Origin: an uncultured Pseudomonadales bacterium
GTDB taxonomy: Bacteria > Patescibacteriota > Microgenomatia > UBA1400 > UBA1396
Length of the DNA: 64,000 nt
Assembly (NCBI GenBank): GCA_964447905.1
Contig: CAYUUK010000005.1
Span: 279 to 64,278, forward strand
Direction of reading: 5' to 3'
Below are positions 5,627 through 29,611 of this stretch, piece after piece. The notes under the pieces were generated by a model. That model saw only the letters and a program-made list of their open reading frames with translations, was not told the DNA's origin and ran no database searches. The position numbers and the translations under genes were made by a program. Within the stretch, counting starts at the first letter, position 1, and each line of letters begins with the position of its first letter.

Positions 5627-5701
5627 ACAGCGTATTGTGGCACGCTCATGAGAGGCATGCAATACGAAAAGAATGCTGCTCCATGGCGTATAATAGGCCG
5701 C

Positions 5702-13404: not shown

Positions 13405-14547
13405 ATGCGCGTTCTCTTATTTGTCTATGAATACCCACCGCTTGGCGGTGGTGTGGCGAATGCTATTTATCACTTGCTGCAAGAATGGAAAGACGATGCG
13501 GACCTGACAATAGACGTGGTCACTTCTTCACTGAAAAATGAGTGGGAAACAGAGCAGCTCGCCAAGCGAATTGTGCTGCACCGAGTGCCCATTGGCGTGC
13601 GCTCTCCAGACAACTATCGCCGGCAAACGCTGGTGCATATGGTGAAGTACACGCTGGGATCGCTGTGGCGCGGAACTCGCCTGAAGATGAAAAACAGCTA
13701 CGATGTATCGCTTTCATTTGGGTATCCGGGGCCCGTGGCCAGTTGGTGGCTGTCGTGGTTTGGTGTGCCGTATGTCGTAGCGCTGCGCGGCGTGGATGTG
13801 CCTGGTTATAATCCGCGGTTTTCGTGGGGGAGCTGGGTGCATCGCTTGGTTATGCGGGTGCTGTGGAGCCGCGCCAAGGCGCTCACGGCCAATAGCCAGT
13901 GGCTCGCCGATGGAGCGCGGAAAACCTGGCCGCAGGCTCCGATTACCGTGATTCCGAATGGCGTTGATACTGATCTTTTCCAACCAGTGCCGCCAGAAGA
14001 CAAGTTTGCCGCCTTCACCGTCACCGCTGGCGGCACCGTCATGGGCAAAAAGAAACGCCTCGATGTTCTGATTGCTGGCTTTGCTGAGTTCGTGCAGGCA
14101 GAGAACTTAACCAGTAAAGAAGCCCAGCTGTTGCTGATTGGTGACGGTGATGAGTATGCTGCGCTGGTGCAGCTGGCGCAAGATTTAGAGATAGAATCTT
14201 ATGTTCGTTTTGTCGGCGCCAAAGACCGTAAATGGATTGCTCAAAACTTGCCGCGGTGTCATGTGTTTTGTTTGCCCTCGGTAGCAGAGGGCATGAGTAA
14301 TGCGGCGCTGGAGGCGATGGCGTGTGGGCTGCCGCTGGTTTTGAGTGATGTGGGGGCGGCAAGGGAGATGGTGCGGGGGAATGGGACAGTTTTGCAGTCA
14401 GTCTCGCCAGAAACAATTACGAAGACTTTGAGAGCTTGGCATGCCGATAGTGCTCTTCTTTTTACTATGAGTCAAAAAAGTGCGGCGTTGTCAGCAGAGT
14501 TTTCTTGGGGTATAGTGGGTAAAGAGTTGAAGGATCTATGGCAATAA
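13405..14547 (+). CDS. glycosyltransferase family 4 (GT-B, group 1)
   Basis: C-terminal FCLPSVAEGMSNAALEAMACGLPLV (E-x7-E GT4 motif). Confidence 0.85.
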   Translation: MRVLLFVYEYPPLGGGVANAIYHLLQEWKDDADLTIDVVTSSLKNEWETEQLAKRIVLHRVPIGVRSPDNYRRQTLVHMVKYTLGSLWRGTRLKMKNSYDVSLSFGYPGPVASWWLSWFGVPYVVALRGVDVPGYNPRFSWGSWVHRLVMRVLWSRAKALTANSQWLADGARKTWPQAPITVIPNGVDTDLFQPVPPEDKFAAFTVTAGGTVMGKKKRLDVLIAGFAEFVQAENLTSKEAQLLLIGDGDEYAALVQLAQDLEIESYVRFVGAKDRKWIAQNLPRCHVFCLPSVAEGMSNAALEAMACGLPLVLSDVGAAREMVRGNGTVLQSVSPETITKTLRAWHADSALLFTMSQKSAALSAEFSWGIVGKELKDLWQ

Positions 14548-15902
14548 ATTGGCGCAGACCGCTTATCTTTAGTCTCCTTACCCTGACGGGAAGTAAGGTT
14601 ACTTGGAACTTGCGCAAGATCTGGCAGTATCACCAACTGTCTTCTGCCGAACTCAAGCACATTCAAGACCAGAAACTCACAGAACTTCTTTTGCACGCCT
14701 ACAAAAAAGTGCCGTACTACCACGGAGAGTTACTGCGCCGTGGTGTCGTTCGCAAAAACGGCTCAGTAGATCTTCAAGCATTTACAGATATTCCAGTTAT
14801 GACGAAGGATCGCATGCGTTTGCTTGGTGAAAAATTGCACGCTATGGACCATAAGAAGCGGGGCAGTTTTGAGAATACTTCAGGTGGATCAACCGGTGAG
14901 CCGGTAGTGTTTTTGCAAGATGCACGATATAAGGACTGGAATATAGCTAATAAGTTGTACTATGCCGGACTGGTTGGGAAGCATGTTGGTGAGCGAGAAG
15001 TAAAATTGTGGGGATCAGAGCGAGATATTTTGCAGGGCTCAATCGGTGTTAAAGAACAGCTCATGAATTTTCTCTATAACCGCCTTCTTCTGAACGCTTT
15101 CTTGATGACAGAAGAAGATATGCGAGTGTATGTCGCCAAGATTGATGCCTTTCGGCCGCAGCATATTTGGACGTATGTGGACAGTATCTACCAACTCGCT
15201 CGTTTCATGGAAGCCAATACACTGCGCTTGCAGCACCCACCAAAGTCAGTTATTACCACTGCTGGGGTGCTCACCGAAGAGGTTCGTAGGTTTGTGGAGT
15301 TCGTCTTGAATACCAAGGTGTACAACCAGTACGGATCGCGCGAAGTTGGTGATATGGCTGCCGAAGACAAAACACAAAATGGATTAAATACTTTTCCTTG
15401 GACTCATTTTTTAGAGATTACTGATGCGGGAGAAATACTCGTCACTACCCTCGAAAATTACTCTATGCCACTGATTCGATACAAAATTGGTGACACAGCC
15501 GCGTGGCTCGATGAGAATAGGTACAAAACAGCGCAGAACGCAACTAGAAAACTTGCCAAGGTGACCGGACGAACCACCAATCATTTTCTGCGCGCTGATG
15601 GCACAGTAGTGCACGGCGAGTACTTTACGCACGTCTTTTACTTCAAATCTTGGGTGAAACGGTTTAAAGTGGTACAGGAGCAGTATGATTTGGTGCGATG
15701 TTTGGTCGTTTTAAATGGTCAGCCAAATCCGCAAGAACAAGCGCAAATGACTGCCGATATCAAGACCGTTATGGGAGAAGAGTGTGCAGTGGAGTTTGAG
15801 TTTGTAGAGGAGATCCTCCCGAGTGCTTCGGGGAAGTATTTGTATACGGAGAGTCTGGTTGTGAAAGAAAAAGGAGATCATGAGCTTCAAAAAAATACTT
15901 AA
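14538..15902 (+). CDS. PaaK/CapK-like adenylate-forming enzyme (phenylacetate-CoA ligase family)
   Basis: AMP-binding P-loop TSGGSTGEP. Length and layout fit the CapK/F390-synthetase family. Confidence 0.75.
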   Translation: MAINWRRPLIFSLLTLTGSKVTWNLRKIWQYHQLSSAELKHIQDQKLTELLLHAYKKVPYYHGELLRRGVVRKNGSVDLQAFTDIPVMTKDRMRLLGEKLHAMDHKKRGSFENTSGGSTGEPVVFLQDARYKDWNIANKLYYAGLVGKHVGEREVKLWGSERDILQGSIGVKEQLMNFLYNRLLLNAFLMTEEDMRVYVAKIDAFRPQHIWTYVDSIYQLARFMEANTLRLQHPPKSVITTAGVLTEEVRRFVEFVLNTKVYNQYGSREVGDMAAEDKTQNGLNTFPWTHFLEITDAGEILVTTLENYSMPLIRYKIGDTAAWLDENRYKTAQNATRKLAKVTGRTTNHFLRADGTVVHGEYFTHVFYFKSWVKRFKVVQEQYDLVRCLVVLNGQPNPQEQAQMTADIKTVMGEECAVEFEFVEEILPSASGKYLYTESLVVKEKGDHELQKNT

Positions 15903-16590
15903 AGAGTTGAATAGGAAGGTCGCAAAACAATACGCAGGTACTCGTGCGTACTGGATGAGATCACCTGCTGGGATATCTTTACTGAAAACAACTGAGTATG
16001 CTCTTGAGAAATATACCTCAGGAGGTGATTTTCTTGATGCAGGAGCTGGTAAATTGGCCTATCGTTCACTGTTGAAAGAGTATGCAGATACATATACCAG
16101 TTGTGATTTTCAGAAGGTTCATCCAGAACTAGATGTAGTGACGGATATTGAAAAAATGTCTTTCAAGTCAAAGAAGTTTGATCTCGTTTTTTGCTCCCAA
16201 GTTTTAGAACATGTGCCGCACCCTTGGCTGGCTCTCGGTGAGATGTACCGTGTTTTAAAGCCATCTGGAACGGCAATTATTACTGTCCCCATGCTTGGGT
16301 ACATTCACAATGCACCCTATGATTTTTACCGCTACACCCAATACGGTCTGCATACACTCGCTGAGGATGCAGGTTTTACTGTATTGGAGATTGCTCCTGT
16401 AGGTGGATTCTTTGCATTTCTAGGATACGTATTTACTACGCTTATTTCGCCATTGTATGGAGTTCCTTTTGTTGGAAAACTCCTCGTTCCGCTCCTCTAT
16501 CCGTTGTACTGGACATTTTTACAGTTAGATAGAATTACTAACAATGAGTCTTTTTTTCCGCTTAACTATCTCCTCGTGGTAAGAAAATAG
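15880..16590 (+). CDS. class I SAM-dependent methyltransferase
   Basis: LDAGAG (motif I), DLVFCSQVLEHV, VLKPSG. AAGGAG Shine-Dalgarno. Confidence 0.8.
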   Translation: MSFKKILKELNRKVAKQYAGTRAYWMRSPAGISLLKTTEYALEKYTSGGDFLDAGAGKLAYRSLLKEYADTYTSCDFQKVHPELDVVTDIEKMSFKSKKFDLVFCSQVLEHVPHPWLALGEMYRVLKPSGTAIITVPMLGYIHNAPYDFYRYTQYGLHTLAEDAGFTVLEIAPVGGFFAFLGYVFTTLISPLYGVPFVGKLLVPLLYPLYWTFLQLDRITNNESFFPLNYLLVVRK

Positions 16591-16591
16591 T

Positions 16592-17509
16592 ATGAAAGTT
16601 TTTTTTGCTGGCGATACAATTTTCCCTAATACGAAGCGTACTGTACAGTCAGAAGTCTTAGAGACTCTCGCGGATTCATCATTGTATTTAAATCTAGAGT
16701 CTGTACTTCTCTCAAAGCGGCCCATAAACAGTGATGCATCCTTGATCGCAAAATTACTCGGAAATTATCCAGTTTTTTCTCTTAGCGAAAATAGTGAAAA
16801 TTTCCCTGTAAAGAATGTGTTTTTCTTTCTATCGAATAATCACATTTTCGATTTTGGGAAAAAAGGCATATTGCGTACAGTGCAGTTTTTAGAGGAAGAA
16901 AACAAAGCTCATCAATCAGTAGATTTAGTAGATGGAGTCATAGTGGAAGTTCCTGTTGCCAATCAGGGAAGAATTCTTATTTATAACTGTAATCTTGTAA
17001 ACCCGAGTAAATATGGGGTGAACGTAAATATCTACAATCATAGGTATGGGAGCTTTCCTTTTTCGATTAGAGATGTCAATCGAGCGTTGCAAAATGTGGA
17101 ATATTCAGATGTTTTGGCAGTCATAGGTTTTCCGCACTTGGGGAAGTGTGGTCGAGATAATTTTAGCCCTCACGATTTTGCACAGCTTACGTCACTGCGG
17201 CAATATATTCCGAATTCTATTCCACATATAGTTTTAGGTCATCACTCACATCAAAATGGGAAAACGCATTATTTGCCTGAAAGCAATCAATTTTTACTCT
17301 ATAGCCTTGGTAATTTTATTTTTGAAGAGGTCCATGGTCGTTTTACGGATAAGTATTTTTATAATTACCTCGCCGAGGTAGATGTACAGTCAGGTAGAAT
17401 TGATATCACCCTGCACAAGATATATAGTGATGATCAGGAAATCAGGTTGGTTTCAGATAACGAAAAGTCGTATTATCCGACTGATAATATTGAACAGATA
17501 TCTTTGTAA
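16592..17509 (+). CDS. CapA-like metallophosphoesterase (PGA_cap family)
   Basis: FFAGD...NLES, SNNHIFDFG and GHHSH match the CapA pattern GD/NLE/ANNH/H-x-H. Confidence 0.55.
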   Translation: MKVFFAGDTIFPNTKRTVQSEVLETLADSSLYLNLESVLLSKRPINSDASLIAKLLGNYPVFSLSENSENFPVKNVFFFLSNNHIFDFGKKGILRTVQFLEEENKAHQSVDLVDGVIVEVPVANQGRILIYNCNLVNPSKYGVNVNIYNHRYGSFPFSIRDVNRALQNVEYSDVLAVIGFPHLGKCGRDNFSPHDFAQLTSLRQYIPNSIPHIVLGHHSHQNGKTHYLPESNQFLLYSLGNFIFEEVHGRFTDKYFYNYLAEVDVQSGRIDITLHKIYSDDQEIRLVSDNEKSYYPTDNIEQISL

Positions 17510-17524
17510 AGAATAAGGAAATCT

Positions 17525-17947
17525 ATGGACTACACAATCCAAGAATTTGAAAAAATAAATGATTCTCGAGGTGAATTAGTTGTTTTTCTGAAAAGTGATG
17601 AGCTCGATGAACGGGATCGAGAGTTTGGGCAGATTTATTTTGTTACTTTTGAAGGTGAAAACCAAATTCGTGGTGAACACTATCATAAACATTGGCGTGA
17701 GTGGTTCGGCGTGGTATCTGGGAAAATATTGGTCCGTCTTAAAGATGTACGTAGCGGAGAAAAAAAAGAGATCATTATTGATGCTGACCACAGTAAGTAT
17801 GTGCGTTTAGAAACCGGTCCGTATGTTGTTCACGGTTTTAAGAGTATTTCTGAGTATGCTGCCATGATCAACTATGCTAATGGCATGTGGTCAGAGAATG
17901 ATACGTTTGCTCACCCATTATTTAATGAGGAGTGGAATGAAGAATAA
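17525..17947 (+). CDS. WxcM/FdtA-like cupin (sugar 3,4-ketoisomerase family)
   Basis: DSRGEL...IYFVTF...RGEHYHKH fits the FdtA-type cupin core. AAGGA Shine-Dalgarno. Confidence 0.6.
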   Translation: MDYTIQEFEKINDSRGELVVFLKSDELDERDREFGQIYFVTFEGENQIRGEHYHKHWREWFGVVSGKILVRLKDVRSGEKKEIIIDADHSKYVRLETGPYVVHGFKSISEYAAMINYANGMWSENDTFAHPLFNEEWNEE

Positions 17948-18947
17948 TTCTGCGGTACGAGTACTAGTTTCAGCAGTTGGCAGTACAACAGCTTTATCTG
18001 CTATAAAAGGTTTTCGGCGTGGTACTCTTCCAGTGTATATCTTGGGTACAGATAGTAATTCGCACGATACCGTTGCTGGCAGCGTATTTTGTGATGCTTT
18101 TGAGCGAGTACCACTTTTTCATTCTGATGAATATATACCCAAAATGCTTGAGGTATGCGAAAAGCACAAGATCCAGGTTATTGTTCCGATTGTTGATGAA
18201 GAAGTGTTACTTCTGTCACAAAACAAAGCAGCCTTTTTAGAAAAGGGTATACACATAGTAGCTTCTTCGCACGAAACAGTGTTGAATTGTAATGATAAAT
18301 TAAAGACATATCAGGCGCTGCTGGCCCAAGGAGTGGAGACAACTCCTACTTGGTTGCTTGAAGAAGTAGAAGCTAGCAGCGTCATATTTCCTCTTTTCTC
18401 GAAGCCTAGAAAAGGCCTCAGTAGCCGCGGAATCTCGCTAATCTCTACGGTTGAAGAGTTGCAGTCACTGCGGTCGAAATCTAGTGATTGTGTAGTACAA
18501 CCATACTATCCAGGTACACTCTACGTTGTGGATGTGCTCAATACTACAGATGGAAAGAACATATTTGCTCTGCCAAGAATAGAACATGAATCAAAAAGTG
18601 GAGTTGGCGTAAAATCCACCACTACTCATAATGATACACTTACAATGATATCTCGAGAGGTGAGTGAGGCTCTTGGTATTTGTGGTCCAGCAAATATAGA
18701 GTTCATCCAGACAGAAGATGGCGAGTTTCATTTTATTGAGATTAATCCTCGTTTTTCTGCTGGGTCAATTCTGAGTACTGTTGCTGGAGTGAATATTCAT
18801 CAGCAAGCGCTTGAGTTGTTTCTGGGAAAAGATAGAAATGAGGCACTTGAGTTTTTATCTGGGGTTACTATGACTCGTTATTGGCAGGAAGTGTATTATA
18901 GAGATGGAGAAGAATTTGGGTCACAGAGGGATGAAGCATGGATTTAA
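17937..18947 (+). CDS. ATP-grasp ligase
   Basis: ATP-grasp fold layout: pre-ATP-grasp region, the central nucleotide-binding segment ...SKPRKGLSSRGI..., and the C-terminal IEINPR. GAGGAG Shine-Dalgarno. The 11-nt overlap with the cupin gene suggests coupling. Confidence 0.65.
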   Translation: MKNNSAVRVLVSAVGSTTALSAIKGFRRGTLPVYILGTDSNSHDTVAGSVFCDAFERVPLFHSDEYIPKMLEVCEKHKIQVIVPIVDEEVLLLSQNKAAFLEKGIHIVASSHETVLNCNDKLKTYQALLAQGVETTPTWLLEEVEASSVIFPLFSKPRKGLSSRGISLISTVEELQSLRSKSSDCVVQPYYPGTLYVVDVLNTTDGKNIFALPRIEHESKSGVGVKSTTTHNDTLTMISREVSEALGICGPANIEFIQTEDGEFHFIEINPRFSAGSILSTVAGVNIHQQALELFLGKDRNEALEFLSGVTMTRYWQEVYYRDGEEFGSQRDEAWI

Positions 18948-19870
18948 CGAGGAAAAAGATAGTCATCACAGGTGGTACCGGATTTATTGGGACGCATATA
19001 GTAAATAGTCTTCTATCTTTGGGAGCTGAGGTGATTTCTTTTTCTCGTAAAGAGCGTCTATCGCACCATCCCCGTTTGCATTTTGTGCAGTGTGACCTTT
19101 TCGAGTCATCTTTGCAGGAATACGAATCACTGGCAGATGTTATCGGACAAACTGATGCTGCCATATTTGCAGCGGCTAGTATCTTGCCTCGGAGCGAGGG
19201 CGTAGATAGTTTAATTGCGGCTAAAGAGAAAAACTTCGATACATTTTTGAATTTCACGGAGACCGTCGGAAAAAAAACAAAGCAAGTAATATTTACCAGC
19301 ACTATAGATGTTTATGGAGTTCCTGAACACGAAGAGTACAGTGAGGAACATCGAATTTTACCCGAGTCTTCCTATGGAGTCGCTAAGTATGCAGCTGAGA
19401 AGTATCTTGAGTATTGGTCTCGGCAAAACAGCATTCCGTATACCGGTTTGCGTTTTTCTCAAGTATATGGACCGAATGAGCCATTGGTTCGTGTCATTCC
19501 TTTTGCCGTGCAAGCTTGGAAAGAGAAAAAAGCCTTTCGCTTGATCAATGGAGGCACAGATAAGAGAAGATTTCTGTATGTCCAAGATGCTGTTTCCTCA
19601 ATCATATCTGCACTAAGTACCAATAAAAATACTTTTTACAACATTGCTGGAGAAGATGTGGTTACGATTAGGGATATAGTTTCCACGATTGAAACACTGA
19701 CTGGTTCCACGATGGAAATCCAAGATCTGGTCCAAGAAGGTCGAAGGCCAGTGCATAATGTACCAAGTATAGCCAAAGCGAAAGATGAACTTGGCTTTCA
19801 ACCGGAGTACTCTTTTATAGCCGGGATGAAAGAAGTATTAAAGGATGTATATGAACATGAACAAGAGTAA
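18938..19870 (+). CDS. NAD-dependent epimerase/dehydratase (SDR)
   Basis: VITGGTGFIGTHIV Rossmann motif; YGVAKYAAE gives the YxxxK catalytic pair. Confidence 0.8.
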   Translation: MDLTRKKIVITGGTGFIGTHIVNSLLSLGAEVISFSRKERLSHHPRLHFVQCDLFESSLQEYESLADVIGQTDAAIFAAASILPRSEGVDSLIAAKEKNFDTFLNFTETVGKKTKQVIFTSTIDVYGVPEHEEYSEEHRILPESSYGVAKYAAEKYLEYWSRQNSIPYTGLRFSQVYGPNEPLVRVIPFAVQAWKEKKAFRLINGGTDKRRFLYVQDAVSSIISALSTNKNTFYNIAGEDVVTIRDIVSTIETLTGSTMEIQDLVQEGRRPVHNVPSIAKAKDELGFQPEYSFIAGMKEVLKDVYEHEQE

Positions 19871-21131
19871 ACAACTTTTTGATGAGTACCAAAAATATGT
19901 GCTTGAGGTGACGCCGTTTCGCGCCCCAATTCTTGCATCGGCTCAAGGAAGTTACTATAAAGATATCGATGGAAACAGCTATCTTGATCTTATGGGAGGC
20001 CAGTTTTGTGAAGTGTTGGGTCATGGAGATGAAGAGTTAGCGGAAGTGGTGTATAAACAGAGTAAAAAGATTTTACATACCAATACATTGTGTTTGACGG
20101 AAGAGGTTCTCGAAGCATGTCGTGCACTCAGTGAAATAACAGATGAAAAGCTACAAAAGACAATTTTACTTTCCACAGGAGCTGAAGCAGTTGAATGTGC
20201 ATTACGATATGCTCGTTTTTACACCAAGAAAGATGGGATTGTTTCGATCACCAACGGGTACCACGGTTTAACATTAGCAACGCAAAGTATTTCGAGTGGC
20301 GGGGCATATGCTCATCCCCTAGTTCCTGGTTCCCACTTTATTCCAACTCCTGATTGGCACAATCGTCCTGATGATATTGATGAAGGGGAGTTTATAGATC
20401 AACACCTTAAAGCTGCCGAAGAGTATCTAGTGGCATATGAAGGCACCCTCGCCGCCTTCATTATCGAGCCAGTGGTATCAGTTGGAGGAATGATTTATTT
20501 ACCCAAAGAGTACTTTATCGGACTAGCGGAGATTGCCAAAAAGCATGACGCTCTGCTAATCTATGACGAGTGTCAAACTGGACTGGGTCGACTTGGCACC
20601 TGGTTTGGGTATGAGCGAACTGGCATAGTACCAGATATTTTAATTTTAGCGAAAGCAGCAGGACTCGGTTTTCCAGTTTCAGCAGTTATGTTTTCTCAAG
20701 AAATTGCGGAGGCTGTAGAAGGAAAGTTCATTCACTTTAGCTCGCACCAAAATGATCCTTTTTCTGCTCGAATGGTACTTCACTTAGTCAATACGATAAA
20801 AAAAGAAAATATGCTTTCAACAATTCGGGAAAGCGGTGAGTACTTTGTAAGTCGCCTGCAAGAGCTTTCTAAAAAAAGTGCTTTGCTGTTGCGGCCGCGT
20901 GGAGAAGGACTCATGATTTCTTTCGATTTACCAGAAGAGCACTTTACTGAGACGATAAATCCCGGAATGCGGCTCATTGATTTGCTTGAACAGCACGGGG
21001 TAATGGTGCAGGCAATCCACAGAGGTAAGACGTTCCGTATAATTCCAAGTTATCGCATTTCTCGAGACGAAATTGATTTTTGTATTAAGACACTCGATAC
21101 CTGTTTACAAATTTTAGAAAAGGAACTATGA
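19851..21131 (+). CDS. class III PLP-dependent aminotransferase
   Basis: IYDECQTGLGRLG (D-E-x-Q-T-G) and ILAKAAGLG (PLP lysine region). Start chosen 5 nt after AAGGA. Confidence 0.8.
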   Translation: MNMNKSKQLFDEYQKYVLEVTPFRAPILASAQGSYYKDIDGNSYLDLMGGQFCEVLGHGDEELAEVVYKQSKKILHTNTLCLTEEVLEACRALSEITDEKLQKTILLSTGAEAVECALRYARFYTKKDGIVSITNGYHGLTLATQSISSGGAYAHPLVPGSHFIPTPDWHNRPDDIDEGEFIDQHLKAAEEYLVAYEGTLAAFIIEPVVSVGGMIYLPKEYFIGLAEIAKKHDALLIYDECQTGLGRLGTWFGYERTGIVPDILILAKAAGLGFPVSAVMFSQEIAEAVEGKFIHFSSHQNDPFSARMVLHLVNTIKKENMLSTIRESGEYFVSRLQELSKKSALLLRPRGEGLMISFDLPEEHFTETINPGMRLIDLLEQHGVMVQAIHRGKTFRIIPSYRISRDEIDFCIKTLDTCLQILEKEL

Positions 21132-22228
21132 AAGTACCTTTCGTTGATCTCTCCCAACAATATAAAGAGGTGAAAGTTGAACTGCAGAAGGATTTCGATC
21201 GGGTTTTTGCAGCACAGAACTTCATTTTAGGAAATGAAGTTGAGCAGTTTGAAAAAGAATTTGCCGCGTATATTGGGAGTAAGTACTGTGTAGGTGTTGG
21301 AAGTGGAACAGATGCACTTATCCTCGCCTTAAAGGCAATGGGTGTCGGTGAGAATGATGAGGTGATTTTGCCCACACACACTTTTGTAGCTACTGCTTTG
21401 GCGGTGATCGAAACAGGAGGAACCCCAGTTTTTGTGGATGTGGATGAGGCTACTCTGCAAATGGACGTGGATGCTGTCGCTGCTGCTATAAACACTAAGA
21501 CAAAGGTTATTCTGCCAGTTCACTTATATGGATCCATGGTTCCAATGGACAGACTTGTGCAGTTAGCTCAGAAGCACGATATTCAGATTTTAGAAGACGC
21601 TTGTCAGGCACATGGTGCGACGTATTCTGGGCAAAAAGCCGGGACATTTGGTAGTATGGCTGCCTTTAGCTTTTATCCTGGGAAAAATCTGGGCGCTTAT
21701 GGCGATGCTGGGGCAATTGTTACTAATGATCCTGAACTCTATGAACAGGCCAAACTCCTGCATAACTATGGGCAAAGAAAAAAGTACCATCATGAAATGC
21801 TCGGAAAAAATTCTCGTCTCGATGAGCTTCAGGCTGCATTTTTGCGGACAAAACTCCTGCATCTGGATAGCTGGAATCAGCAAAGAAAGCAAATTGCCCA
21901 AAAGTATAACGCTTCTTTAGGGCAGTATCGCTTGGAAGTTCCTGATGAAATAGAGAGTGTATATCACCTATACGTGATCCAGCATCCTCATCGTGATGAG
22001 TTGCAGGCATATTTAGAAAACCATGGGGTGAATACGCTTATTCACTATCCCATACCATTGCACATGCAGCAGTGTTTTAAGTACATGAATCATGCTCCGG
22101 AAGAGTATCCGATTGCCGAAAAGTACACAGCACGGATTCTTAGTTTACCAATTTATCCTGGCATGACTGATGAGCAGGTAGACTATGTCATTGAGCAAAT
22201 TCTGACGTTTGAGAACGAGAAGAAATGA
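21128..22228 (+). CDS. DegT/DnrJ/EryC1/StrS-family sugar aminotransferase
   Basis: Typical N-terminus VPFVDL...ILG.EV..FE..FA.Y and the SFYPGKNLGAYGDAGAI PLP-lysine box. Confidence 0.85.
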   Translation: MKVPFVDLSQQYKEVKVELQKDFDRVFAAQNFILGNEVEQFEKEFAAYIGSKYCVGVGSGTDALILALKAMGVGENDEVILPTHTFVATALAVIETGGTPVFVDVDEATLQMDVDAVAAAINTKTKVILPVHLYGSMVPMDRLVQLAQKHDIQILEDACQAHGATYSGQKAGTFGSMAAFSFYPGKNLGAYGDAGAIVTNDPELYEQAKLLHNYGQRKKYHHEMLGKNSRLDELQAAFLRTKLLHLDSWNQQRKQIAQKYNASLGQYRLEVPDEIESVYHLYVIQHPHRDELQAYLENHGVNTLIHYPIPLHMQQCFKYMNHAPEEYPIAEKYTARILSLPIYPGMTDEQVDYVIEQILTFENEKK

Positions 22229-23196
22229 GATCCCCAACGGTTTCTATCACGCTAGCAACATATAACAGAACGGAATTTCTGCAAGGGACTCTCGATTCTT
22301 TAGTCGCGCAAACGTATCAAGATTTTGAGATTATCTTGGTGGATGATGGCTCAACAGACAATACCCCACAGCATATTGAACAATTACTAAAAAATAAGAA
22401 GTATGCAAAGGTTCGATTTTTTCCACTACCAGAGAATAGAGGAATAGCGTTTGCTATATCCTACGCAATGCAGCACTCAAAAGGTAAGTATATCTCCCAT
22501 ATTGGCTCGGATGATCTATGGCAGAAAACGGCTCTTGAAAAAATGGTGCAGGTGCTCGATACCAATTCAGAAGTTGGTGTTGTGTACACAGATGCCTCTC
22601 GGATTGATAGAGATGGCAAGATACTTTCTGAATCTCGTTTTGCTGAGAACCCAATAGGACCTCAAAAAGGCTGGGTTTTTAAAGACTTGCTTCTAAAGGG
22701 AATGTTTGTGTCCGCTATCTCAGTTACGTTTCGGCGATCTTTGTATGATATTGTTGGCGATTTTGATACTAACTATAGCATTAGTAATGATTACGATTTC
22801 TTTATGCGCTGTTCCGCTCATGCACAATTTGACTATATTAATGAGGTCTTAGCTTGTTGGAGAATGCATGACAAAAATCTTCATAAGAAAGACAAAACAC
22901 AAGCTTACATAGAGAGAATAGCGGTTATTCAAAAGAATTACATGGCATGTGGCAAGGAATTCCATATCTCCGAATTGAGATATCGAACTATAATTTCTAG
23001 TATTTATCTTCAAACTGGAATTTTCAAAGCACAAGCGGGCGACTTTGCGGAAAGCCGACCGTATTTCATTAAAAGTTTGATGTTTATGCCAGTAAATATT
23101 TTAGCGTTTGTGTTGTTTTTTAACACATATCTGAAATTACGATGGTTATGGCATTTTGAAATATATAAAAAAGTATATTTGCGAATGTTTAAATAA
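22225..23196 (+). CDS. glycosyltransferase family 2
   Basis: SITLATYNR...ILVDDGSTDNT and the GSDD DxD region. Confidence 0.8.
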   Translation: MRSPTVSITLATYNRTEFLQGTLDSLVAQTYQDFEIILVDDGSTDNTPQHIEQLLKNKKYAKVRFFPLPENRGIAFAISYAMQHSKGKYISHIGSDDLWQKTALEKMVQVLDTNSEVGVVYTDASRIDRDGKILSESRFAENPIGPQKGWVFKDLLLKGMFVSAISVTFRRSLYDIVGDFDTNYSISNDYDFFMRCSAHAQFDYINEVLACWRMHDKNLHKKDKTQAYIERIAVIQKNYMACGKEFHISELRYRTIISSIYLQTGIFKAQAGDFAESRPYFIKSLMFMPVNILAFVLFFNTYLKLRWLWHFEIYKKVYLRMFK

Positions 23197-23198
23197 GT

Positions 23199-24140: not shown

Positions 24141-24141
24141 T

Positions 24142-26658
24142 TTATTTTTTGGTATAACTATACACAACTATTGGTTCATTTCTTCTGCCAGAATGCACAC
24201 CGACTTCGTCTATTGGGCTGACAAAGCGTTTCGTAAATATATCCATAACATAGAGCGAAAGTGTATTGTTATGCTCACTAAAGCGTCGGCCAGCGAATAG
24301 CCACAGCGTTTGGCCAGATTTCATTTGGGTAAGTACTTGTGTAAGCTCGTCAGCGTTTCGAATGTATGGTGTGTTTGAGTAGATCGAAAGAACCTTATTA
24401 CTTCCAGATGGAATATATCCCATTTCGGAGCTCAAAGTTCCATTCATGATGTAGTCGTATTGACCATAGTGCCAGGGGTTGTAGATATCTGTAACTACAT
24501 ATATATCATTTGGCCGCTTGTGGTTACTGATGAAGGATAGTGCTTCCAGTGATCGTGGACTTCTGATAACAGCTGTAATTCCGTGAAACACGTGTGGGTT
24601 TTCAAGTAGCTTTGTGTAGAGCTTTGCCTGAGAGATCGTGCTGCTAGAGTAGAGTTCAATGTCACCAACACGGTTTCTTTCAAAGTAGTAGTGACTGGCA
24701 TAGTCTTTTACGGTACGTGAGGAAAGGATACCAATCAAGAGTGTACCGATAAAAACGAATGGCAACAGTTTTTTTGAAATTGATAGTTTTTGCACAAGAG
24801 AAAAAAGGATCCAGATGGCAAAAATACCAAAAGCAATATATGTGCCGAGCAAATACTTAACGGCAAAGCGATTAAACAGTAAGAATCCAAAAAGGAAGTT
24901 AAGGAGAGAAAAAATACCGATTAGAGTTATTTTTTCTGGTATCTTGATGTCTAGAGTGCGCCGTTTTAGAAGAAAATAGAGCGTAAGCACCACAATGAAT
25001 ATCAAAATTCCAAGATGACTGTAGAGTATGGTCGAACTGTAGTAGTGGAATGTGGGTAAAAAAGAATCTAAAACCCCAACTGTATTCGAAGACTGGACTG
25101 CATAGGTTCCTTTTAGGAAATGCAGACGGTAAAAATTGAGAATTTTAAAATTAAAGAGGTATCCCGCTGTAAAGCTAGCAAGGAGTGACAGCAATGAGAC
25201 ATTTCTCAACCATTTCCATCGATCTCTAAGCACCAAAAACACTAGGAAAGCCGGTATTACTGCATAGCTGAACAAAAGACTTGAACCAGCTACAAAGACA
25301 ATACCAATATATGTGGCAAGTTTGCTCTTTGATATTTTTTGAATGGAAGTTTGGTGGAAGATAGCAAGTGAGAGAAAGAGCAGTAAATATCCAATCATGT
25401 AGTGGCGAGCTTGAGTAGACCAAGCAATAAGATAGGGATATGTAGCAGCATATATCCCAACACCACATGCGAATACTTTGTTTGTATTTTTATAGAACTG
25501 AGTTAAGAAGTACACAAAGGCAACACCTGTAAGTAACGAGACAAGTCGCATAGAAAAGTGATTCGTGCCCAGAAGCAATCCACTGAGAGCTGTTAGGTAA
25601 CTGAAGAGATAACCTCGCATATATAGTTGGCCTGATTCGAAGAGAGGAAAACCATTTTTGAGAATGGCATCAGTGATGAGAGGGTAGAGCCCTTCGTCGC
25701 CACTAAATGGTAACAGCGAAATGTTGAGGAGTCTCAGTATTGCTGCAAATAGGGTGGTGTAGAGTGAAAGTACAATAAATCGATGTTCTCGAGTTTGTGA
25801 ACCACTCTTTTCTGCGGAGAAGAAGTTAAGACGTATTCTTTTTTGTAATCGGATGGCTAAGAGTGTTGCGGAGCTCAAAAATGGTCCAAAGGAAATAAAG
25901 ATGACAGCGATATATTGTTCAAGTTTGTTAAAAATATACTCAGATTCATATACAGCTTTTTTGTACAGAAAATTAAGGAATTCTGTAGGGTCATTTCTAA
26001 AATCTGCGATCGAGAAGATGTGTCGATAGTAAACTGCTTCTAGCAAAAGTTCGCCAGAATTCGGAAGTATTTGGTAGGTATAGGTTTTCTGCTTGGATTT
26101 AAGTTTTGGAAAACCGAGAATCATTGTTTTTTCTTGAGTCGGGGTAAACTCAGTCTCGAAAAGCCATTCTGTTGAGTCTTTTTCTTTCAGTCGAAAAATA
26201 AAGTTGCTCTGCATCGGTGTTTTGAGTGTAACGAGCAGAGTGCCAAAATTATTTACAGTGGATTCGTAATAACCTTCATATGCATGCGTATTTGTTTTCT
26301 CCTCTTCTGTGAGAGCTTTATAAACAGTAATGTTTTTGGGAGGATGGGTTTCAAAATGATGTTGTGAAACTGAAAAAGAACCTGATAGAAACGTGAAAAT
26401 AGCAATGCTGGCGAGTAGTAGCGGTGAAAAAAGAAAAGAGATACCCAACTCAGTTACTGAATGAATGATTGCCCTAAATTGAATTTTCTTCCAATTGAAG
26501 GCAATAAGGCTAACGGTACTAATGATTGGTGCGAGAATAAAAAAATTTGGGAGTTTGAAGTATGGATGCGGACTAAAAAACTGGAGACAAAAGAGTAAAC
26601 CTGTCAGAGCAGAAAAAAGTAGAAATACTCGTGCTAACGAGGCAAAAGATAATTTCAT
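24142..26658 (-). CDS. GT-C glycosyltransferase (ArnT/PMT GT39/GT83-like) with extra N- and C-terminal domains
   Basis: Core PFSGDEGLYPLITDAIL...PLFESGQLYMRGYLFSYL matches the DE-x-Y loop-1 motif of the ArnT/PMT family. More than 12 TM; 838 aa. Confidence 0.65.
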   Translation of the reverse strand: MKLSFASLARVFLLFSALTGLLFCLQFFSPHPYFKLPNFFILAPIISTVSLIAFNWKKIQFRAIIHSVTELGISFLFSPLLLASIAIFTFLSGSFSVSQHHFETHPPKNITVYKALTEEEKTNTHAYEGYYESTVNNFGTLLVTLKTPMQSNFIFRLKEKDSTEWLFETEFTPTQEKTMILGFPKLKSKQKTYTYQILPNSGELLLEAVYYRHIFSIADFRNDPTEFLNFLYKKAVYESEYIFNKLEQYIAVIFISFGPFLSSATLLAIRLQKRIRLNFFSAEKSGSQTREHRFIVLSLYTTLFAAILRLLNISLLPFSGDEGLYPLITDAILKNGFPLFESGQLYMRGYLFSYLTALSGLLLGTNHFSMRLVSLLTGVAFVYFLTQFYKNTNKVFACGVGIYAATYPYLIAWSTQARHYMIGYLLLFLSLAIFHQTSIQKISKSKLATYIGIVFVAGSSLLFSYAVIPAFLVFLVLRDRWKWLRNVSLLSLLASFTAGYLFNFKILNFYRLHFLKGTYAVQSSNTVGVLDSFLPTFHYYSSTILYSHLGILIFIVVLTLYFLLKRRTLDIKIPEKITLIGIFSLLNFLFGFLLFNRFAVKYLLGTYIAFGIFAIWILFSLVQKLSISKKLLPFVFIGTLLIGILSSRTVKDYASHYYFERNRVGDIELYSSSTISQAKLYTKLLENPHVFHGITAVIRSPRSLEALSFISNHKRPNDIYVVTDIYNPWHYGQYDYIMNGTLSSEMGYIPSGSNKVLSIYSNTPYIRNADELTQVLTQMKSGQTLWLFAGRRFSEHNNTLSLYVMDIFTKRFVSPIDEVGVHSGRRNEPIVVYSYTKK

Positions 26659-27251: not shown

Positions 27252-27258
27252 ATCAATA

Positions 27259-28455: not shown

Positions 28456-28599
28456 ATGGTTGAATTCATTCAGAGGATTCTTGAGGGAATTGCATACTAT
28501 TCACCATTTATTATCATGTTCGTTATCACAAGCATGATTGTTGGACCGCTCTTATTGGCGCAATTCTTTGGATTTCTCTCAAAAATTATAAAAAACTAG
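28456..28599 (+). CDS. 47-aa single-TM micro-protein (MVEFIQRILEGIAYYSPFIIMFVITSMIVGPLLLAQFFGFLSKIIKN)
   Basis: ATG 5 nt after an AAGGAG Shine-Dalgarno, preceded by a canonical promoter. Absent from the track because it is under 60 aa. Confidence 0.45.
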   Translation: MVEFIQRILEGIAYYSPFIIMFVITSMIVGPLLLAQFFGFLSKIIKN

Positions 28600-29552: not shown

Positions 29553-29611
29553 GGGGACATGGTAGCACAATTTGTGTGCGCTCACGCTCAGCAAGGAGCA
29601 AAAATGAATTG

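Follow-up and report, generated by a model that had tools for sequence, protein, structure and literature searches.

Amino-acyl 3-amino sugars are a known class of glycan constituents, encountered in C. difficile and in E. coli O antigens. The flagellin glycan of C. difficile RT027 (type B) carries a terminal Fuc3N with its amine acylated by a Gly/Ala peptide, and a 'carbamoyl-phosphate-synthetase-like' ATP-grasp gene, situated two genes from an FdtB homolog, is required for the peptidyl-Fuc3N moiety. In V. cholerae, the PaaK/CapK-like VpsH, the sole genetically studied CapK-like enzyme found, is needed for a lipid-linked disaccharide to carry its glycine amide on GulNAcA. Uronate amidation in C. 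jejuni HS:2 involves the transaminase Cj1437, the C-terminal ATP-dependent amidoligase domain of Cj1438 and the HAD phosphatase Cj1435. As in C. difficile, the locus described here has an ATP-grasp gene near a QdtB/FdtB-like DegT aminotransferase gene. Given the known amino-acyl sugars, the kind of product predicted for it has more precedent than the initial annotation had implied.

The window (the whole stretch of DNA analyzed, 64 kb of a candidate-phyla bacterium) contains eight forward-strand ORFs (14538-22228) that are translationally coupled, with start/stop overlaps of 4-26 nt and gaps of 1-15 nt. The coupled run described initially was thus borne out and is in fact longer, comprising 11 genes (13405-24140) with a GT4 glycosyltransferase at the front and a GT2 glycosyltransferase and an LPG_synthase_TM protein at the end (Table 1). 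The linkage to glycosyltransferases is clear. We interpret the region as a composite surface-glycan operon of two modules, one for an acylated 3-amino sugar and one for an independent decoration, and consider that this reading has about an even chance of being correct. The domain assignments proposed earlier all held in HMM searches, with nuances concerning the ATP-grasp protein (Pfam matches to ATPgrasp_Ter, ATP-grasp_3 and PylC-like_N, but only marginally to ATP-grasp_4) and the adenylating enzyme, which was unmatched in the local Pfam copy. As also stated initially, no NeuB-like synthase is present in the entire 64 kb window. A Woesebacteria MAG shows the entire cluster in synteny, and the three proteins used as queries are 81-92% identical to their counterparts there, so the cluster is not an assembly artefact. 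The closest relatives of the locus are L002 and L005, and the eight genes are syntenic in both.

Table 1. Coordinates and predicted products of the genes discussed.
Position	Strand	Predicted product	Evidence
13405..14547	+	GT4 glycosyltransferase, first gene of the coupled run	Glyco_trans_1_4 5e-24, Glyco_trans_4_4 1e-14 (Pfam)
14538..15902	+	CapK/PaaK-like adenylate-forming ligase (predicted)	precomputed PF27533 CapK_C, PaaK structures, motifs
15880..16590	+	SAM methyltransferase, variable member of module 2	Methyltransf_11 2e-15 (Pfam)
16592..17509	+	PGA_cap (CapA-like) putative metallophosphoesterase	PGA_cap 9.6e-11, 42 bits, cut-off 27 (Pfam)
17525..17947	+	FdtA/QdtA-like cupin, putative NDP-4-keto-6-deoxyhexose 3,4-ketoisomerase, block core	Pfam and motif
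17937..18947	+	PylC-like/PRK12767-type ATP-grasp carboxylate-amine ligase (predicted), block core; start of database protein, longest ORF from 17874	Pfam, NCBIfam, AlphaFold, Foldseek
18938..19870	+	extended SDR, NADP-type	Epimerase 1e-38 (Pfam)
19845..21131	+	class III (omega-type) aminotransferase	Aminotran_3 3e-81 (Pfam)
21128..22228	+	QdtB/FdtB-like NDP-3-keto-sugar C3-aminotransferase (predicted), block core	DegT_DnrJ_EryC1 1e-124 (Pfam)
22225..23196	+	GT2 glycosyltransferase	Glycos_transf_2 6e-32 (Pfam); one C-terminal TM segment
23199..24140	+	LPG_synthase_TM (flippase-like) polytopic membrane protein, last gene of the run	PF03706 6e-34; ~7 TM-like segments
24142..26658	-	838-aa polytopic membrane protein, convergent with the operon	~14 TM-like segments and soluble C-terminal domain (hydropathy)
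28596..29594	-	UDP-glucuronate 4-epimerase-like SDR	ASSSSVYG; PDB 5u4q 311 bits, 6zl6 series 163 bits, MoeE5 150 bits

With regard to the amino sugar, the best PDB match of the DegT protein was QdtB (E 1.3e-116, 393 bits). DesV, WlaRG and WbpE followed at 260-390 bits, and we take all four to be C3-aminotransferases; a clear score gap separates them from perosamine synthetases, ArnB and dTDP-4-amino-sugar transaminase (≤185 bits). The cupin matched Pfam FdtA (2.3e-10, 40.8 bits; cut-off 23) and, at ~1e-4, the PDB entries of FdtA, QdtA and WxcM, and it keeps the R-G-x-H-x-H-K histidine motif in alignment with FdtA and QdtA. The DegT ranking and this motif thus lend good support to the route suggested by the initial annotation, and the product of the two enzymes, as judged from their sequences, is very probably a 3-amino-3,6-dideoxyhexose. 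The Pfam score of the cupin for Polysacc_synt_C, the C-terminal domain of CapF/WbjC, was slightly above that for FdtA (1.4e-11, 44.9 bits), an observation that counts against the two-module reading. Within the 64 kb window there is neither a 4,6-dehydratase with the canonical signature nor a nucleotidyltransferase or UDP-sugar 6-dehydrogenase; therefore both the 6-deoxy substrate and a uronic acid are assumed to come from elsewhere.

Comparison of about 170 related loci revealed a conserved block, which consists of a cupin or a WbpB-like oxidoreductase, the ATP-grasp ligase, either an SDR and a class III aminotransferase or a methyltransferase and a HAD phosphatase, DegT and GT2. It was found in CPR bacteria, Spirochaetes, Cyanobacteria, Clostridia and Bathyarchaeia, so that an ATP-dependent ligase of an uncharacterised kind recurs within it in bacteria and archaea. 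The gene order is cupin-ATP-grasp-SDR-aminotransferase-DegT-GT2 in L005, L089, L090 and L092, DegT-GFO-ATP-grasp-SDR-aminotransferase in L008, and cupin-ATP-grasp-methyltransferase-HAD-DegT-GT2 in L009, L091 and L094. The cupin lies directly upstream of the ligase in L005-L007, L009, L011, L089-L092, L094 and L095, while a GFO_IDH_MocA oxidoreductase takes its place in L008 and L099. Within the close ATP-grasp subfamily (174-293 bits), 11 loci had enough flank: a cupin or WbpB-like GFO oxidoreductase stands beside the ligase in eight of them, DegT lies ≤7 kb away in eight, and the SDR with the class III aminotransferase is present in five.

That one ligase accompanies two routes to 3-keto sugars ties it to the 3-amine. 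In addition, Hexapep, GNAT and formyltransferase families are absent from the Pfam-annotated genes of L005-L008, L089-L092, L172 and the window, which makes the ATP-grasp protein the best candidate for acylating the sugar amine. A carboxylate-activating ligase on the sugar amine had been proposed initially, and the nearby 3-keto generator and DegT, along with the lack of N-acetyltransferases in the Pfam-annotated loci, support this for the ATP-grasp enzyme. Activity on the 3-amine is its most parsimonious role; gene context and the C. difficile precedent indicate that it probably attaches a small acid in place of acetylation. The AlphaFold model of the ligase (pLDDT 92) has 2pn1, biotin carboxylases, L-amino-acid ligases, PurK, PylC and also CPS as Foldseek neighbours. 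Enzymes that activate bicarbonate are among them alongside amino-acid ligases, which counts against the two-module reading.

The ligase might also follow the logic of C. jejuni HS:2, activating a uronic acid residue at its C6 carboxylate and coupling it to a small amine that the SDR and the class III aminotransferase supply. The amide product would then lose a phosphate to a phosphoesterase (PGA_cap in this locus, HAD in others), and DegT and the cupin would make a different feature of that sugar or of a second one. Cj1437, the C-terminal domain of Cj1438 and Cj1435 do perform this chemistry, a PHP phosphoesterase adjoins the ligase in Sinorhizobium, and a UDP-GlcA-epimerase-like SDR lies within the window. 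L008 and L099 have a WbpB-like 3-keto generator, and the substrate of WbpB is a uronic acid sugar. Among the first 88 loci, 38 have a distant ATP-grasp family member fused to a HAD phosphatase or directly beside one, an association that suits ligation of a phosphorylated partner and Cj1438-like amidation equally. However, the Cj1438 domain belongs to the ATPgrasp_TupA family and has no detectable relationship to the ligase of the window, a member of another family (hhalign probability 0.2%). Moreover, the 6-deoxy sugars of the cupin route have no carboxylate, a UDP-sugar 6-dehydrogenase is missing from every Pfam-annotated locus as it is from the window, and the loci with SDR and class III aminotransferase (variant A) contain no phosphatase inside the block. 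We therefore regard uronate amidation by this ligase as unlikely.

The eight genes had been considered a single pathway, a view that the neighbourhood comparison does not support: they fall into two modules, each of which occurs without the other, and the CapK-like ligase, methyltransferase and PGA_cap genes make up a decoration module of their own, tied to GT4. GT4 is a conserved partner located immediately 5' of CapK in L001-L004, and PGA_cap travels with CapK. The methyltransferase is near CapK in L004, while in L005 CapK and PGA_cap have no methyltransferase between them. The CapK-like protein has >4000 homologs, matches PaaK structures at 4.7e-12 and carries TSGGSTGEP and a C-terminal SGK motif; its scores for NCBIfam PaaK and F390 are far under the cut-offs. 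Two C-terminal TM-like segments predicted from hydropathy (residues 166-184 and 188-206) make the methyltransferase appear membrane-anchored. The PGA_cap protein, which had no sequence match in PDB, contains the motifs FAGDT, NNHIFDFG, FPHLG and GHHSH. Acylation of a sugar amine had been proposed for the CapK-like ligase too, but the VpsH analogy makes it more likely that this enzyme amidates the carboxylate of a uronic acid in a lipid-linked glycan.

Translational coupling of all eight genes and their synteny in L002 and L005 would still suit a single pathway, in which the CapK-like and ATP-grasp enzymes act on one amino sugar, yielding for example a dipeptidyl or doubly acylated substituent that is then methylated. 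The multi-residue peptide on C. difficile Fuc3N is in line with this, as are the CapK and PGA_cap genes (40% identity) of the block-bearing locus L089. Nevertheless, in L089 PGA_cap adjoins CapK ~8 kb from the cupin block, behind two GT4 genes. L003 and L004 (with GT4) and L174 have CapK but no block, and L006-L008, L090-L092 and L172 have the block but no CapK. Since the VpsH precedent and the apparent membrane anchor of the methyltransferase also speak against it, a single pathway seems quite unlikely.

Regarding the SDR of the block, the motifs TST[I/V/A]D[V/I]YG and YxxxK are conserved in an alignment over seven loci. The T-D-E triad of dehydratases is missing from the protein, and its strand beta2 is followed by S/T-R-K. 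It scored above no NCBIfam equivalog cut-off and matched only GalE/UXS-type enzymes in PDB (~1e-23). The missing 4,6-dehydratase signature, the NADP-type look and the functional pairing with the class III aminotransferase argue against the dehydratase role initially considered. The top PDB matches of the aminotransferase were dialkylglycine decarboxylase and omega-transaminases (~1e-57), and all NCBIfam equivalogs were below cut-off. Its counterparts in the same block elsewhere form a distinct subfamily (46-66% identity), and it accompanies this SDR type in all eight loci having the latter. In one locus (L172) an Fe-dependent alcohol dehydrogenase stands in the place of the SDR beside the aminotransferase, a swap which suggests that the two enzymes are a redox/omega-transamination pair making or tailoring the acid. 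The NADP-type motif would favour reduction in vivo, which counts against the two-module reading and makes the direction of the pair uncertain.

The closest solved relatives of the SDR are all nucleotide-sugar enzymes (GalE, UXS, GlcNAc 4-epimerases), and the cupin resembles the cupin domain of CapF/WbjC, a partner of an NADPH-dependent SDR domain. The SDR could thus be proposed to carry out an oxidation or reduction at one position of the NDP-sugar ring, as a 4-ketoreductase, an epimerase or an oxidase feeding the aminotransferase, to give a diamino sugar or a stereoisomer. The ligase would then N-acylate, N-formylate or N-carboxylate one amine, in keeping with PurK, biotin carboxylase and CPS among its fold neighbours. 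However, ring-ketone amination of NDP-sugars is the task of the DegT family, and we know of no class III aminotransferase performing it. Furthermore, the replacement in L172 comes from a small-molecule enzyme family, and the SDR is not CapF-like in sequence (no match to Cap5F in the PDB search at E ≤ 1e-10), so that action on the ring is rather improbable. A LysZ/LysY/LysJ-like conversion of a carboxylate to a primary amine, via an ATP-grasp acyl phosphate and an aldehyde formed by the SDR with NADPH, would fit the strictly conserved order and overlap of the ligase, SDR and aminotransferase genes, the NADP-type motif, the preference of class III enzymes for aldehydes and primary amines, and the ATP-grasp-SDR adjacency in Sinorhizobium, but it is highly improbable, as to our knowledge no acyl-phosphate reductase is an SDR and ATP-grasp enzymes do not normally release acyl phosphates, variant B loci have the ligase without SDR and aminotransferase, and the Sinorhizobium SDR is just 24% identical with a different motif.

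According to the two-module reading, module 1 (17525-23196; cupin to GT2) would make and transfer a nucleotide-activated 3-amino-3,6-dideoxyhexose. Enzymes encoded elsewhere would supply NDP-4-keto-6-deoxyhexose, which the cupin, judging from its family and motif, would convert to the 3-keto sugar, and the DegT enzyme would perform the well-supported C3 amination. The PylC-like ligase would activate a small carboxylic acid as acyl phosphate and acylate the amine, an ATP-dependent, CoA-independent reaction distinct from acetylation. Acting on the acid ahead of ligation, or on the acyl chain once it is bound to the sugar, the SDR and class III aminotransferase may interconvert R-CH2OH or R-CHOH, carbonyl and amine, leaving an amino or hydroxy substituent. 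In module 2 (13405-17509), an independent decoration unit, the CapK-like enzyme would most likely adenylate a carboxylate and form an amide on a lipid-linked glycan intermediate, probably on a uronic acid placed by GT4. The role of the PGA_cap phosphoesterase may be to trim an amine substituent that bears phosphate, and the methyltransferase may work at the membrane.

The decorated sugar is likely transferred by GT2, which adjoins DegT in most block loci (L001, L002, L005, L009, L011, L089, L091, L092, L096). The LPG_synthase_TM gene follows GT2 in L001, L002 and L005, and CapK in L004. The 838-aa protein had no match in the Pfam search; its homolog in L002 weakly matches PMT_2 and its position is kept in L005, and it is a possible GT-C-type extracytoplasmic transferase. 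Speculatively, GT2 would load polyprenyl phosphate, LPG_synthase_TM would flip the product and the 838-aa protein would attach it extracytoplasmically. Finally, the second SDR of the window (28596..29594) scored below the NCBIfam cut-offs for GalE and TviC, and its PDB matches include the 6zl6 series and MoeE5, which are UDP-GlcA 4-epimerases. It is contextual evidence of a uronic acid in the glycan, and L004 has a homolog of it (430 bits) in the vicinity of CapK.

All eight plus-strand genes that the initial annotation had assigned to a single pathway for an amino-acid-acylated, methylated amino-deoxy sugar were recovered in the ORF list with their coordinates, neighbouring genes overlapping by 4-26 nt or being separated by gaps of 1-15 nt. 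Pfam and NCBIfam searches upheld the methyltransferase, PGA_cap, cupin, ATP-grasp, extended SDR, class III aminotransferase and DegT calls. The coupled run exceeds these eight genes, extending from a GT4 glycosyltransferase at the 5' end through a GT2 glycosyltransferase to an LPG_synthase_TM gene, and an 838-aa membrane protein on the opposite strand converges on the end of the operon. The description of genes, coordinates and domains therefore holds; of the interpretation, the route to a 3-amino sugar stands, whereas the single eight-gene pathway does not. A CapK-like protein identical to that of the window was found on a public contig of 29.6 kb (L001). A Candidatus Woesebacteria MAG (L002; GCA_021208925.1) shows synteny over the whole cluster, with protein identities of 83% (CapK), 81% (ATP-grasp) and 92% (class III aminotransferase) for the three proteins searched. 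Given this synteny, the attribution of the DNA to a CPR bacterium had been right. In L002 (8667-11164), the closest relative, the GT4 and CapK-like genes are each found in two ORFs (148 + 235 aa, and a short fragment + 387 aa), reflecting either frameshifts or MAG assembly errors. The G+C content is 37-43% over 16-28 kb of the window and 47-53% in the immediate flanks; this compositionally distinct glycan island fits horizontal acquisition or different constraints. Scanning the operon for promoters and terminators gave counts not above those of shuffled sequences.

Coordinates of the operon, its modules and neighbouring features in the window
Feature	Position	Strand	Remark
F420-0:gamma-glutamyl-ligase-family protein	5405-6439		among housekeeping genes
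Wzx-like flippase	8578-9864		adjoins the GT2/YfhO-like pair
GT2/YfhO-like pair	9879-13009	-	GT2 (12155-13009) overlaps start of 795-aa YfhO-like membrane protein (9879-12266)
GT4 glycosyltransferase	13405-14547	+	first gene of the run; 10-nt overlap with next start
CapK module	13405-17509	+	GT4-CapK-methyltransferase-PGA_cap
Eight annotated genes	14538-22228	+	CapK-like to DegT
Methyltransferase	15880-16590	+	two C-terminal hydrophobic segments, residues 166-206
Glycan island	16000-28000		compositionally distinct
ATP-grasp block	17525-23196	+	cupin-ATP-grasp-SDR-class III aminotransferase-DegT-GT2
GT2 glycosyltransferase	22225-23196	+	
LPG_synthase_TM membrane protein	23199-24140	+	last gene of the run
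838-aa protein, 198-aa protein, GT2	24142-27251	-	arrangement conserved in L005
UDP-GlcA-epimerase-like SDR	28596-29594		ASSSSVYG motif
Second glycan assembly locus	33122-38068	+	
Protein-kinase-domain protein	38116-39480	-	Pkinase 9e-11; adjoins tRNA-Lys

Anchoring on the two ligases, CapK-like and ATP-grasp, gave related loci in public assemblies (L numbers) for comparison: 80 each from species-representative genomes and from metagenomes, two plasmid regions, and those of 12 context look-ups. The order cupin-ATP-grasp-SDR-class III aminotransferase-DegT-GT2, referred to here as the block, recurs in L005, L089, L090 and L092 (variant A), as well as in L006 with the DegT gene 6.5 kb off. In L008 the order is DegT-GFO-ATP-grasp-SDR-class III aminotransferase, a GFO_IDH_MocA oxidoreductase replacing the cupin, and L099 carries GFO-ATP-grasp-SDR, the class III aminotransferase and DegT not being detected there. 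This oxidoreductase partner is WbpB-like; besides the cupin route, WbpB/WbpE is the one known to lead to a 3-keto sugar. A variant B, cupin-ATP-grasp-(SDR)-methyltransferase-HAD phosphatase-DegT-GT2, is present in L009, L091 and L094 and partially in L007, L010, L011, L096, L097 and L098. Members of the close ATP-grasp subfamily are 34-49% identical over the best aligned segment; 11 of their loci have enough flank, and of these eight carry a cupin or GFO, eight DegT and five the SDR together with the class III aminotransferase. The block is distributed over CPR bacteria, Cyanobacteria, Spirochaetes, Clostridia and Bathyarchaeia.

The same comparison separates the CapK-like gene from the block. 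CapK homologs at 50-54% identity retain an upstream GT4 and have no cupin, ATP-grasp, SDR or aminotransferase genes around them; conversely, L006-L008 and L090-L092 contain the block but no CapK. In L089, CapK adjoins PGA_cap after two GT4 genes, approximately 8 kb from the block, and in L004 an LPG_synthase_TM gene and a methyltransferase also accompany CapK. We thus conclude that the eight genes do not form one pathway, and that two modules, GT4-CapK(-methyltransferase)-PGA_cap and cupin-ATP-grasp-SDR-class III aminotransferase-DegT-GT2, have been fused in the operon of this lineage. In L092 (4657-18716) and L007 (2862-8312) the block directly adjoins Wzm/Wzt exporters with a Wzt_C carbohydrate-binding domain, and in L092 also a GDP-mannose 4,6-dehydratase/DegT/SDR trio and GT11. 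In these two loci, Wzt_C might recognise the decorated sugar as a cap that ends the chain.

The best-supported part of the earlier interpretation is the route to a 3-amino-3,6-dideoxyhexose through a putative 3,4-ketoisomerase and the DegT transaminase. The cupin, a single domain of approximately 140 aa, matches Pfam FdtA (PF05523) at 40.8 bits (cut-off 23; residues 1-126) and also passes Polysacc_synt_C, the C-terminal cupin domain of CapF/WbjC, at 44.9 bits. Over its own full length it aligns with FdtA and QdtA, and the R-G-x-H-x-H-K motif, the site of their catalytic histidines, is conserved (IRGEHYHK, aligned to PRGFHAHK of FdtA, 2pa7, and TRGYHSHK of QdtA, 4zu7). The best solved relative of DegT is QdtB (E 1.3e-116, 393 bits), along with DesV (352), WlaRG (315) and WbpE (267), which we take to be C3 aminotransferases acting on a 3-keto sugar. 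Perosamine synthetase (185 bits), ArnB (153) and the dTDP-4-amino-sugar transaminase 4piw (145), presumably C4 enzymes, score lower, so that by sequence the DegT protein is demonstrably nearer to the C3 group and of C3 type. Its PLP-binding lysine motif, read directly in the translation, is SFYPGKNLGAYGDAG. Neither a nucleotidyltransferase nor an SDR with a dehydratase signature was found in the 64-kb window; the suppliers of an NDP-4-keto-6-deoxyhexose are thus not encoded within it.

Classical Qui3NAc and Fuc3NAc clusters encode the acetyltransferase QdtC or FdtC. The window shares with the QdtA/QdtB/QdtC system of Thermoanaerobacterium thermosaccharolyticum and the FdtA/FdtB/FdtC system of Aneurinibacillus thermoaerophilus the 140-aa RGxHxHK cupin, the QdtB-nearest DegT and a glycosyltransferase after them. 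Unlike these dTDP-Qui3NAc and dTDP-Fuc3NAc clusters, it has no QdtC/FdtC-type LbH N-acetyltransferase and no RmlA or RmlB, and carries an ATP-grasp protein, a predicted NADP-type SDR and a class III aminotransferase between isomerase and aminotransferase.

The ATP-grasp protein, whose longest ORF starts at 17874 and whose identical database entry starts at 17937, matches Pfam ATP-grasp_3 (3e-15) and also contains a PylC-like_N domain; the residues expected for nucleotide and Mg binding, K121, K156, E268, N270 and R272, are invariant in alignment A2. Its structure model is confident (pLDDT 92) and the top structure matches are ATP-grasp folds, the nearest being the uncharacterised 2pn1, followed about equally by biotin carboxylases, PurK, CPS, PylC, RizA, BL00235 and YwfE. 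The fold search confirmed the superfamily, with amino-acid-ligase and carboxylase types scoring alike; judged by its modelled fold, the protein would be a carboxylate-activating ligase, the substrate not being fixed by the fold. The nearest functionally characterised folds are RizA, BL00235, YwfE/BacD and PylC (query-normalised TM score 0.62-0.72), but identity to these ligases is only 14-18% and the scores of biotin carboxylase, PurK and CPS are no lower. As for the nucleophile, the ligase adjoins a generator of the 3-keto sugar, whether of the cupin or of the WbpB-like route, and in the block loci it nearly always has DegT in its vicinity; neither the Pfam-annotated genes of these loci nor the window yielded an N-acetyltransferase, GNAT or formyltransferase. 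These findings point to the 3-amine of the sugar. The N-acyl groups of amino sugars are, to our knowledge, normally attributed to transferases that depend on acyl-CoA, ACP or formyl-folate; in the block, the ATP-grasp gene stands at the usual place of the acetyltransferase, coupled to a redox/transaminase or a methyltransferase/phosphatase pair.

A published precedent comes from hypervirulent C. difficile (RT027/RT023): in its type B flagellin glycan, the amine of a terminal Fuc3N is acylated by a Gly/Ala-taurine sulfopeptide. In the respective locus (CDR20291_0244-0247), the genes for an FdtB homolog and for a 'carbamoyl-phosphate-synthetase-like' ATP-grasp protein lie two genes apart, and inactivation of the latter led to loss of the terminal glycan moiety. 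A C3-type/FdtB-like aminotransferase and an ATP-grasp ligase in one locus are thus common to both, and the product there is an amino-acyl 3-amino sugar for which the ATP-grasp gene is genetically required; the window ligase may be likened to it by description. The C. difficile locus differs in having a FemAB-like acyltransferase and an ornithine-cyclodeaminase/alanine-dehydrogenase-like gene, and in lacking FdtA, the SDR and the class III aminotransferase. Amide-linked amino acids are also known in several E. coli O antigens. In the literature searched, ATP-grasp and FdtA/FdtB/QdtB were named together only in the C. difficile flagellin work, so the conserved block seems undescribed; a search for CPR glycan loci with these genes returned nothing relevant, and archaeal AglU (threonine attachment), considered as a relative, was mentioned in no paper found. 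In the plasmid collection, the homologs were only unannotated or generically named. A ligase homolog is present on plasmids of 74 Sinorhizobium records; on pSMED01 of Sinorhizobium medicae (L173, 4592-10937) a distant homolog (28% identity) lies in a PAPS-synthesis context, the order being CysD-like, CysNC-like, inositol-monophosphatase-family, PHP phosphoesterase, ATP-grasp and SDR. With an SDR just 24% identical, this locus is too distant to serve as a functional guide.

The SDR and its companion, the class III aminotransferase, may be concerned with the acid to be attached. The SDR subfamily conserves T-S-T-[I/V/A]-D-[V/I]-Y-G and YxxxK, with T-I-D where 4,6-dehydratases have T-D-E and S-R-K after beta2, the latter features being conserved in seven loci. 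The S/T-R-K replacing the Asp of NAD+-retaining epimerases and dehydratases suggests use of NADP(H). The solved relatives of the SDR are nucleotide-sugar enzymes, at only about 1e-23. An NDP-hexose 4,6-dehydratase function was rejected, the T-D-E triad being absent and the score against RmlB-type TIGR01181 reaching 94 bits (cut-off 365). The class III aminotransferase accompanies this SDR type wherever it was found (8/8 loci). It matches Pfam Aminotran_3 at 273 bits, is below the cut-off of every NCBIfam model, and forms a subfamily of its own (46-66% identity) resembling omega-transaminases and dialkylglycine decarboxylase. Class III enzymes act on aldehydes and primary amines. In the Clostridia locus L172 (7767-13049), the order DegT-ATP-grasp-class III aminotransferase-Fe-dependent alcohol dehydrogenase-RmlC-like sits inside a Wzm/Wzt ABC-transporter polysaccharide cluster, the aminotransferase being 42% identical to that of the window. 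That an unrelated Fe-dependent alcohol dehydrogenase takes the place of the SDR argues, by analogy, that the pair may interconvert alcohol, carbonyl and amine. Such chemistry makes the pair the proposed source of the acid attached by the ATP-grasp protein, which it would make or tailor before or after ligation.

A HAD phosphatase very often accompanies the ligase across the wider ATP-grasp family (27-35% identity): of the first 88 loci, seven carry it as a fusion with the ligase and 31 as the next gene downstream. In Sinorhizobium a PHP phosphoesterase precedes the ligase. This association suggests that many members of the family ligate a phosphorylated partner. The fusions (L041, L049, L072, L075, L079, L087 and L088; C-terminal HAD, ORFs of 529-572 aa) occur in Firmicutes and one Saccharibacteria MAG, several with the order DegT, PglC-like phosphoglycosyl transferase, ATP-grasp::HAD. 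The phosphatase link is compatible both with acylation of the sugar amine by a phospho-acid and with the main rival reading, in which the ATP-grasp protein would amidate the C6 carboxylate of a uronic acid with a phospho-amine. The latter has a model in C. jejuni HS:2, where a transaminase (Cj1437) leads to serinol phosphate, an ATP-dependent amidoligase (C-terminal part of Cj1438) couples it to glucuronate and a HAD phosphatase (Cj1435) trims the product. The logic of an ATP-dependent ligase, an aminotransferase and a phosphoesterase in a glycan locus is shared, but in HS:2 the sugar supplies the carboxylate, whereas in the window a 3-amino sugar would be made beside the ligase. Homology of the two ligases was rejected: Cj1438C, taken from the supplement of the published C. 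jejuni paper, matches ATPgrasp_TupA at 1.3e-37, the window ligase does not, and the hhalign probability between them is 0.2%; the likeness to HS:2 is therefore one of logic only. No UDP-sugar 6-dehydrogenase was found in the 64-kb window or in any Pfam-annotated locus, which counts against a uronic acid. A uronic acid in the glycan would be consistent with the UDP-GlcA-epimerase-like SDR of the window, a homolog of which (430 bits) lies near CapK in L004; among the structural relatives of this SDR are the 6zl6 series and MoeE5, both taken here to be UDP-GlcA 4-epimerases. A complete pseudaminic or legionaminic acid pathway was rejected, since no NeuB-like nonulosonate synthase or CMP-transferase was found among all window ORFs of at least 150 aa, and DegT, of C3 rather than PseC/LegC type, is below the PseC and LegC NCBIfam cut-offs.

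Amidation of an acidic sugar is also the chemistry to which the CapK module may be related. The CapK-like protein, of a very large family (>4000 homologs) and always encoded downstream of GT4, had no match in the local Pfam copy, while PF27533 CapK_C is precomputed for the identical protein. It carries the ANL P-loop TSGGSTGEP and the C-terminal catalytic lysine motif SGK, and matches PaaK structures at 4.7e-12. Its scores against PaaK equivalogs (46.5 bits, cut-off 646, for TIGR02155; 53.5 bits, cut-off 700, for NF041878) indicate a relative within the PaaK superfamily only. The best NCBIfam matches of the methyltransferase and the CapK-like gene, both far below cut-off, are the DVU_1556 and DVU_1553 families, named after nearby Desulfovibrio vulgaris locus tags. 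PGA_cap reaches 42.1 bits in Pfam (cut-off 27) over profile positions 82-254 only, with putative metal-binding motifs read by eye, and no PDB sequence match was found. The methyltransferase is probably membrane-anchored; its TM-like segments and the preceding GT4 are consistent with action of the module on a membrane-bound glycan. In a 2026 genetic study, amide linkage of glycine to the GulNAcA of a bactoprenyl-PP-disaccharide required the PaaK/CapK-like V. cholerae VpsH. VpsH and the window protein, likened by description, are both PaaK/CapK-like adenylate-forming proteins of polysaccharide loci next to GT4 enzymes. The genetics of VpsH concern an amide-linked substituent on the carboxylate of GulNAcA, a polarity opposite to the acylation of a sugar amine first envisaged for the CapK-like ligase, an assignment that by this analogy appears less apt. 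By these genetics the target of VpsH is a uronic acid, whereas no uronic-acid-forming dehydrogenase was detected in the window. In the light of the VpsH genetics, the CapK-like/PGA_cap module may serve to decorate acidic sugars with amides.

Returning to the ATP-grasp block and acylation of the 3-amine, N-acylated 3-amino-3,6-dideoxy sugars are already known as a class of product; the block with alternative tailoring pairs, centred on an uncharacterised ATP-grasp subfamily, is widespread and apparently undescribed. Beyond family membership, every catalytic assignment in the operon is one that we infer. We tentatively propose, as a possibility held with considerable doubt, that the PylC-like ATP-grasp subfamily represents a widespread, hitherto uncharacterised means of N-acylating NDP-3-amino sugars through an ATP-dependent acyl phosphate, independently of CoA, ACP and folate. 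The SDR or Fe-dependent alcohol dehydrogenase would, with the class III aminotransferase, give the acyl chain an amino or hydroxy end, possibly with the chain already on the sugar, and the methyltransferase/phosphatase pair in the sister variants would imply phosphorylated acids such as phosphoglycerate or phosphoserine. If true, this would be a new enzyme logic for the diversification of bacterial and archaeal glycans. If the ligase acts as proposed, it would explain the making of amino-acyl and peptidyl 3-amino sugars, such as the C. difficile flagellin cap and several O antigens, and would offer a genomic signature by which glycans of this kind could be predicted. Uncultivated CPR bacteria depend on cell-cell contact, and the same assumption would give insight into their surface chemistry.

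Regarding delivery of the sugar, DegT-GT2-LPG_synthase_TM followed by the convergent 838-aa protein is kept in L001, L002 and L005. TM-like segments number one (C-terminal) in GT2, about seven in LPG_synthase_TM and about 14 in the 838-aa protein, which has a soluble C-terminal domain and whose L002 homolog shows a weak PMT_2 match. This architecture resembles the three-component systems of polyprenyl-phosphate-sugar synthase, flippase and GT-C enzyme, a resemblance offered as a possibility because GT2 is not specifically GtrB- or ArnC-like in NCBIfam. After the 838-aa protein, which has no Pfam match, come a 198-aa protein combining hydrophobic segments at its N terminus with a TIG/IPT domain, and then a GT2; paralogy suspected between the 838-aa and an 836-aa membrane protein was not found. 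The GT2/YfhO-like pairing upstream of the operon resembles CsbB/YfhO-type extracytoplasmic glycosylation systems. Finally, the second glycan assembly locus of the window comprises a GT2, a Wzx-like flippase (Polysacc_synt_3, 1e-53), two further GT2 and a Wzy_C polymerase/ligase-like gene.
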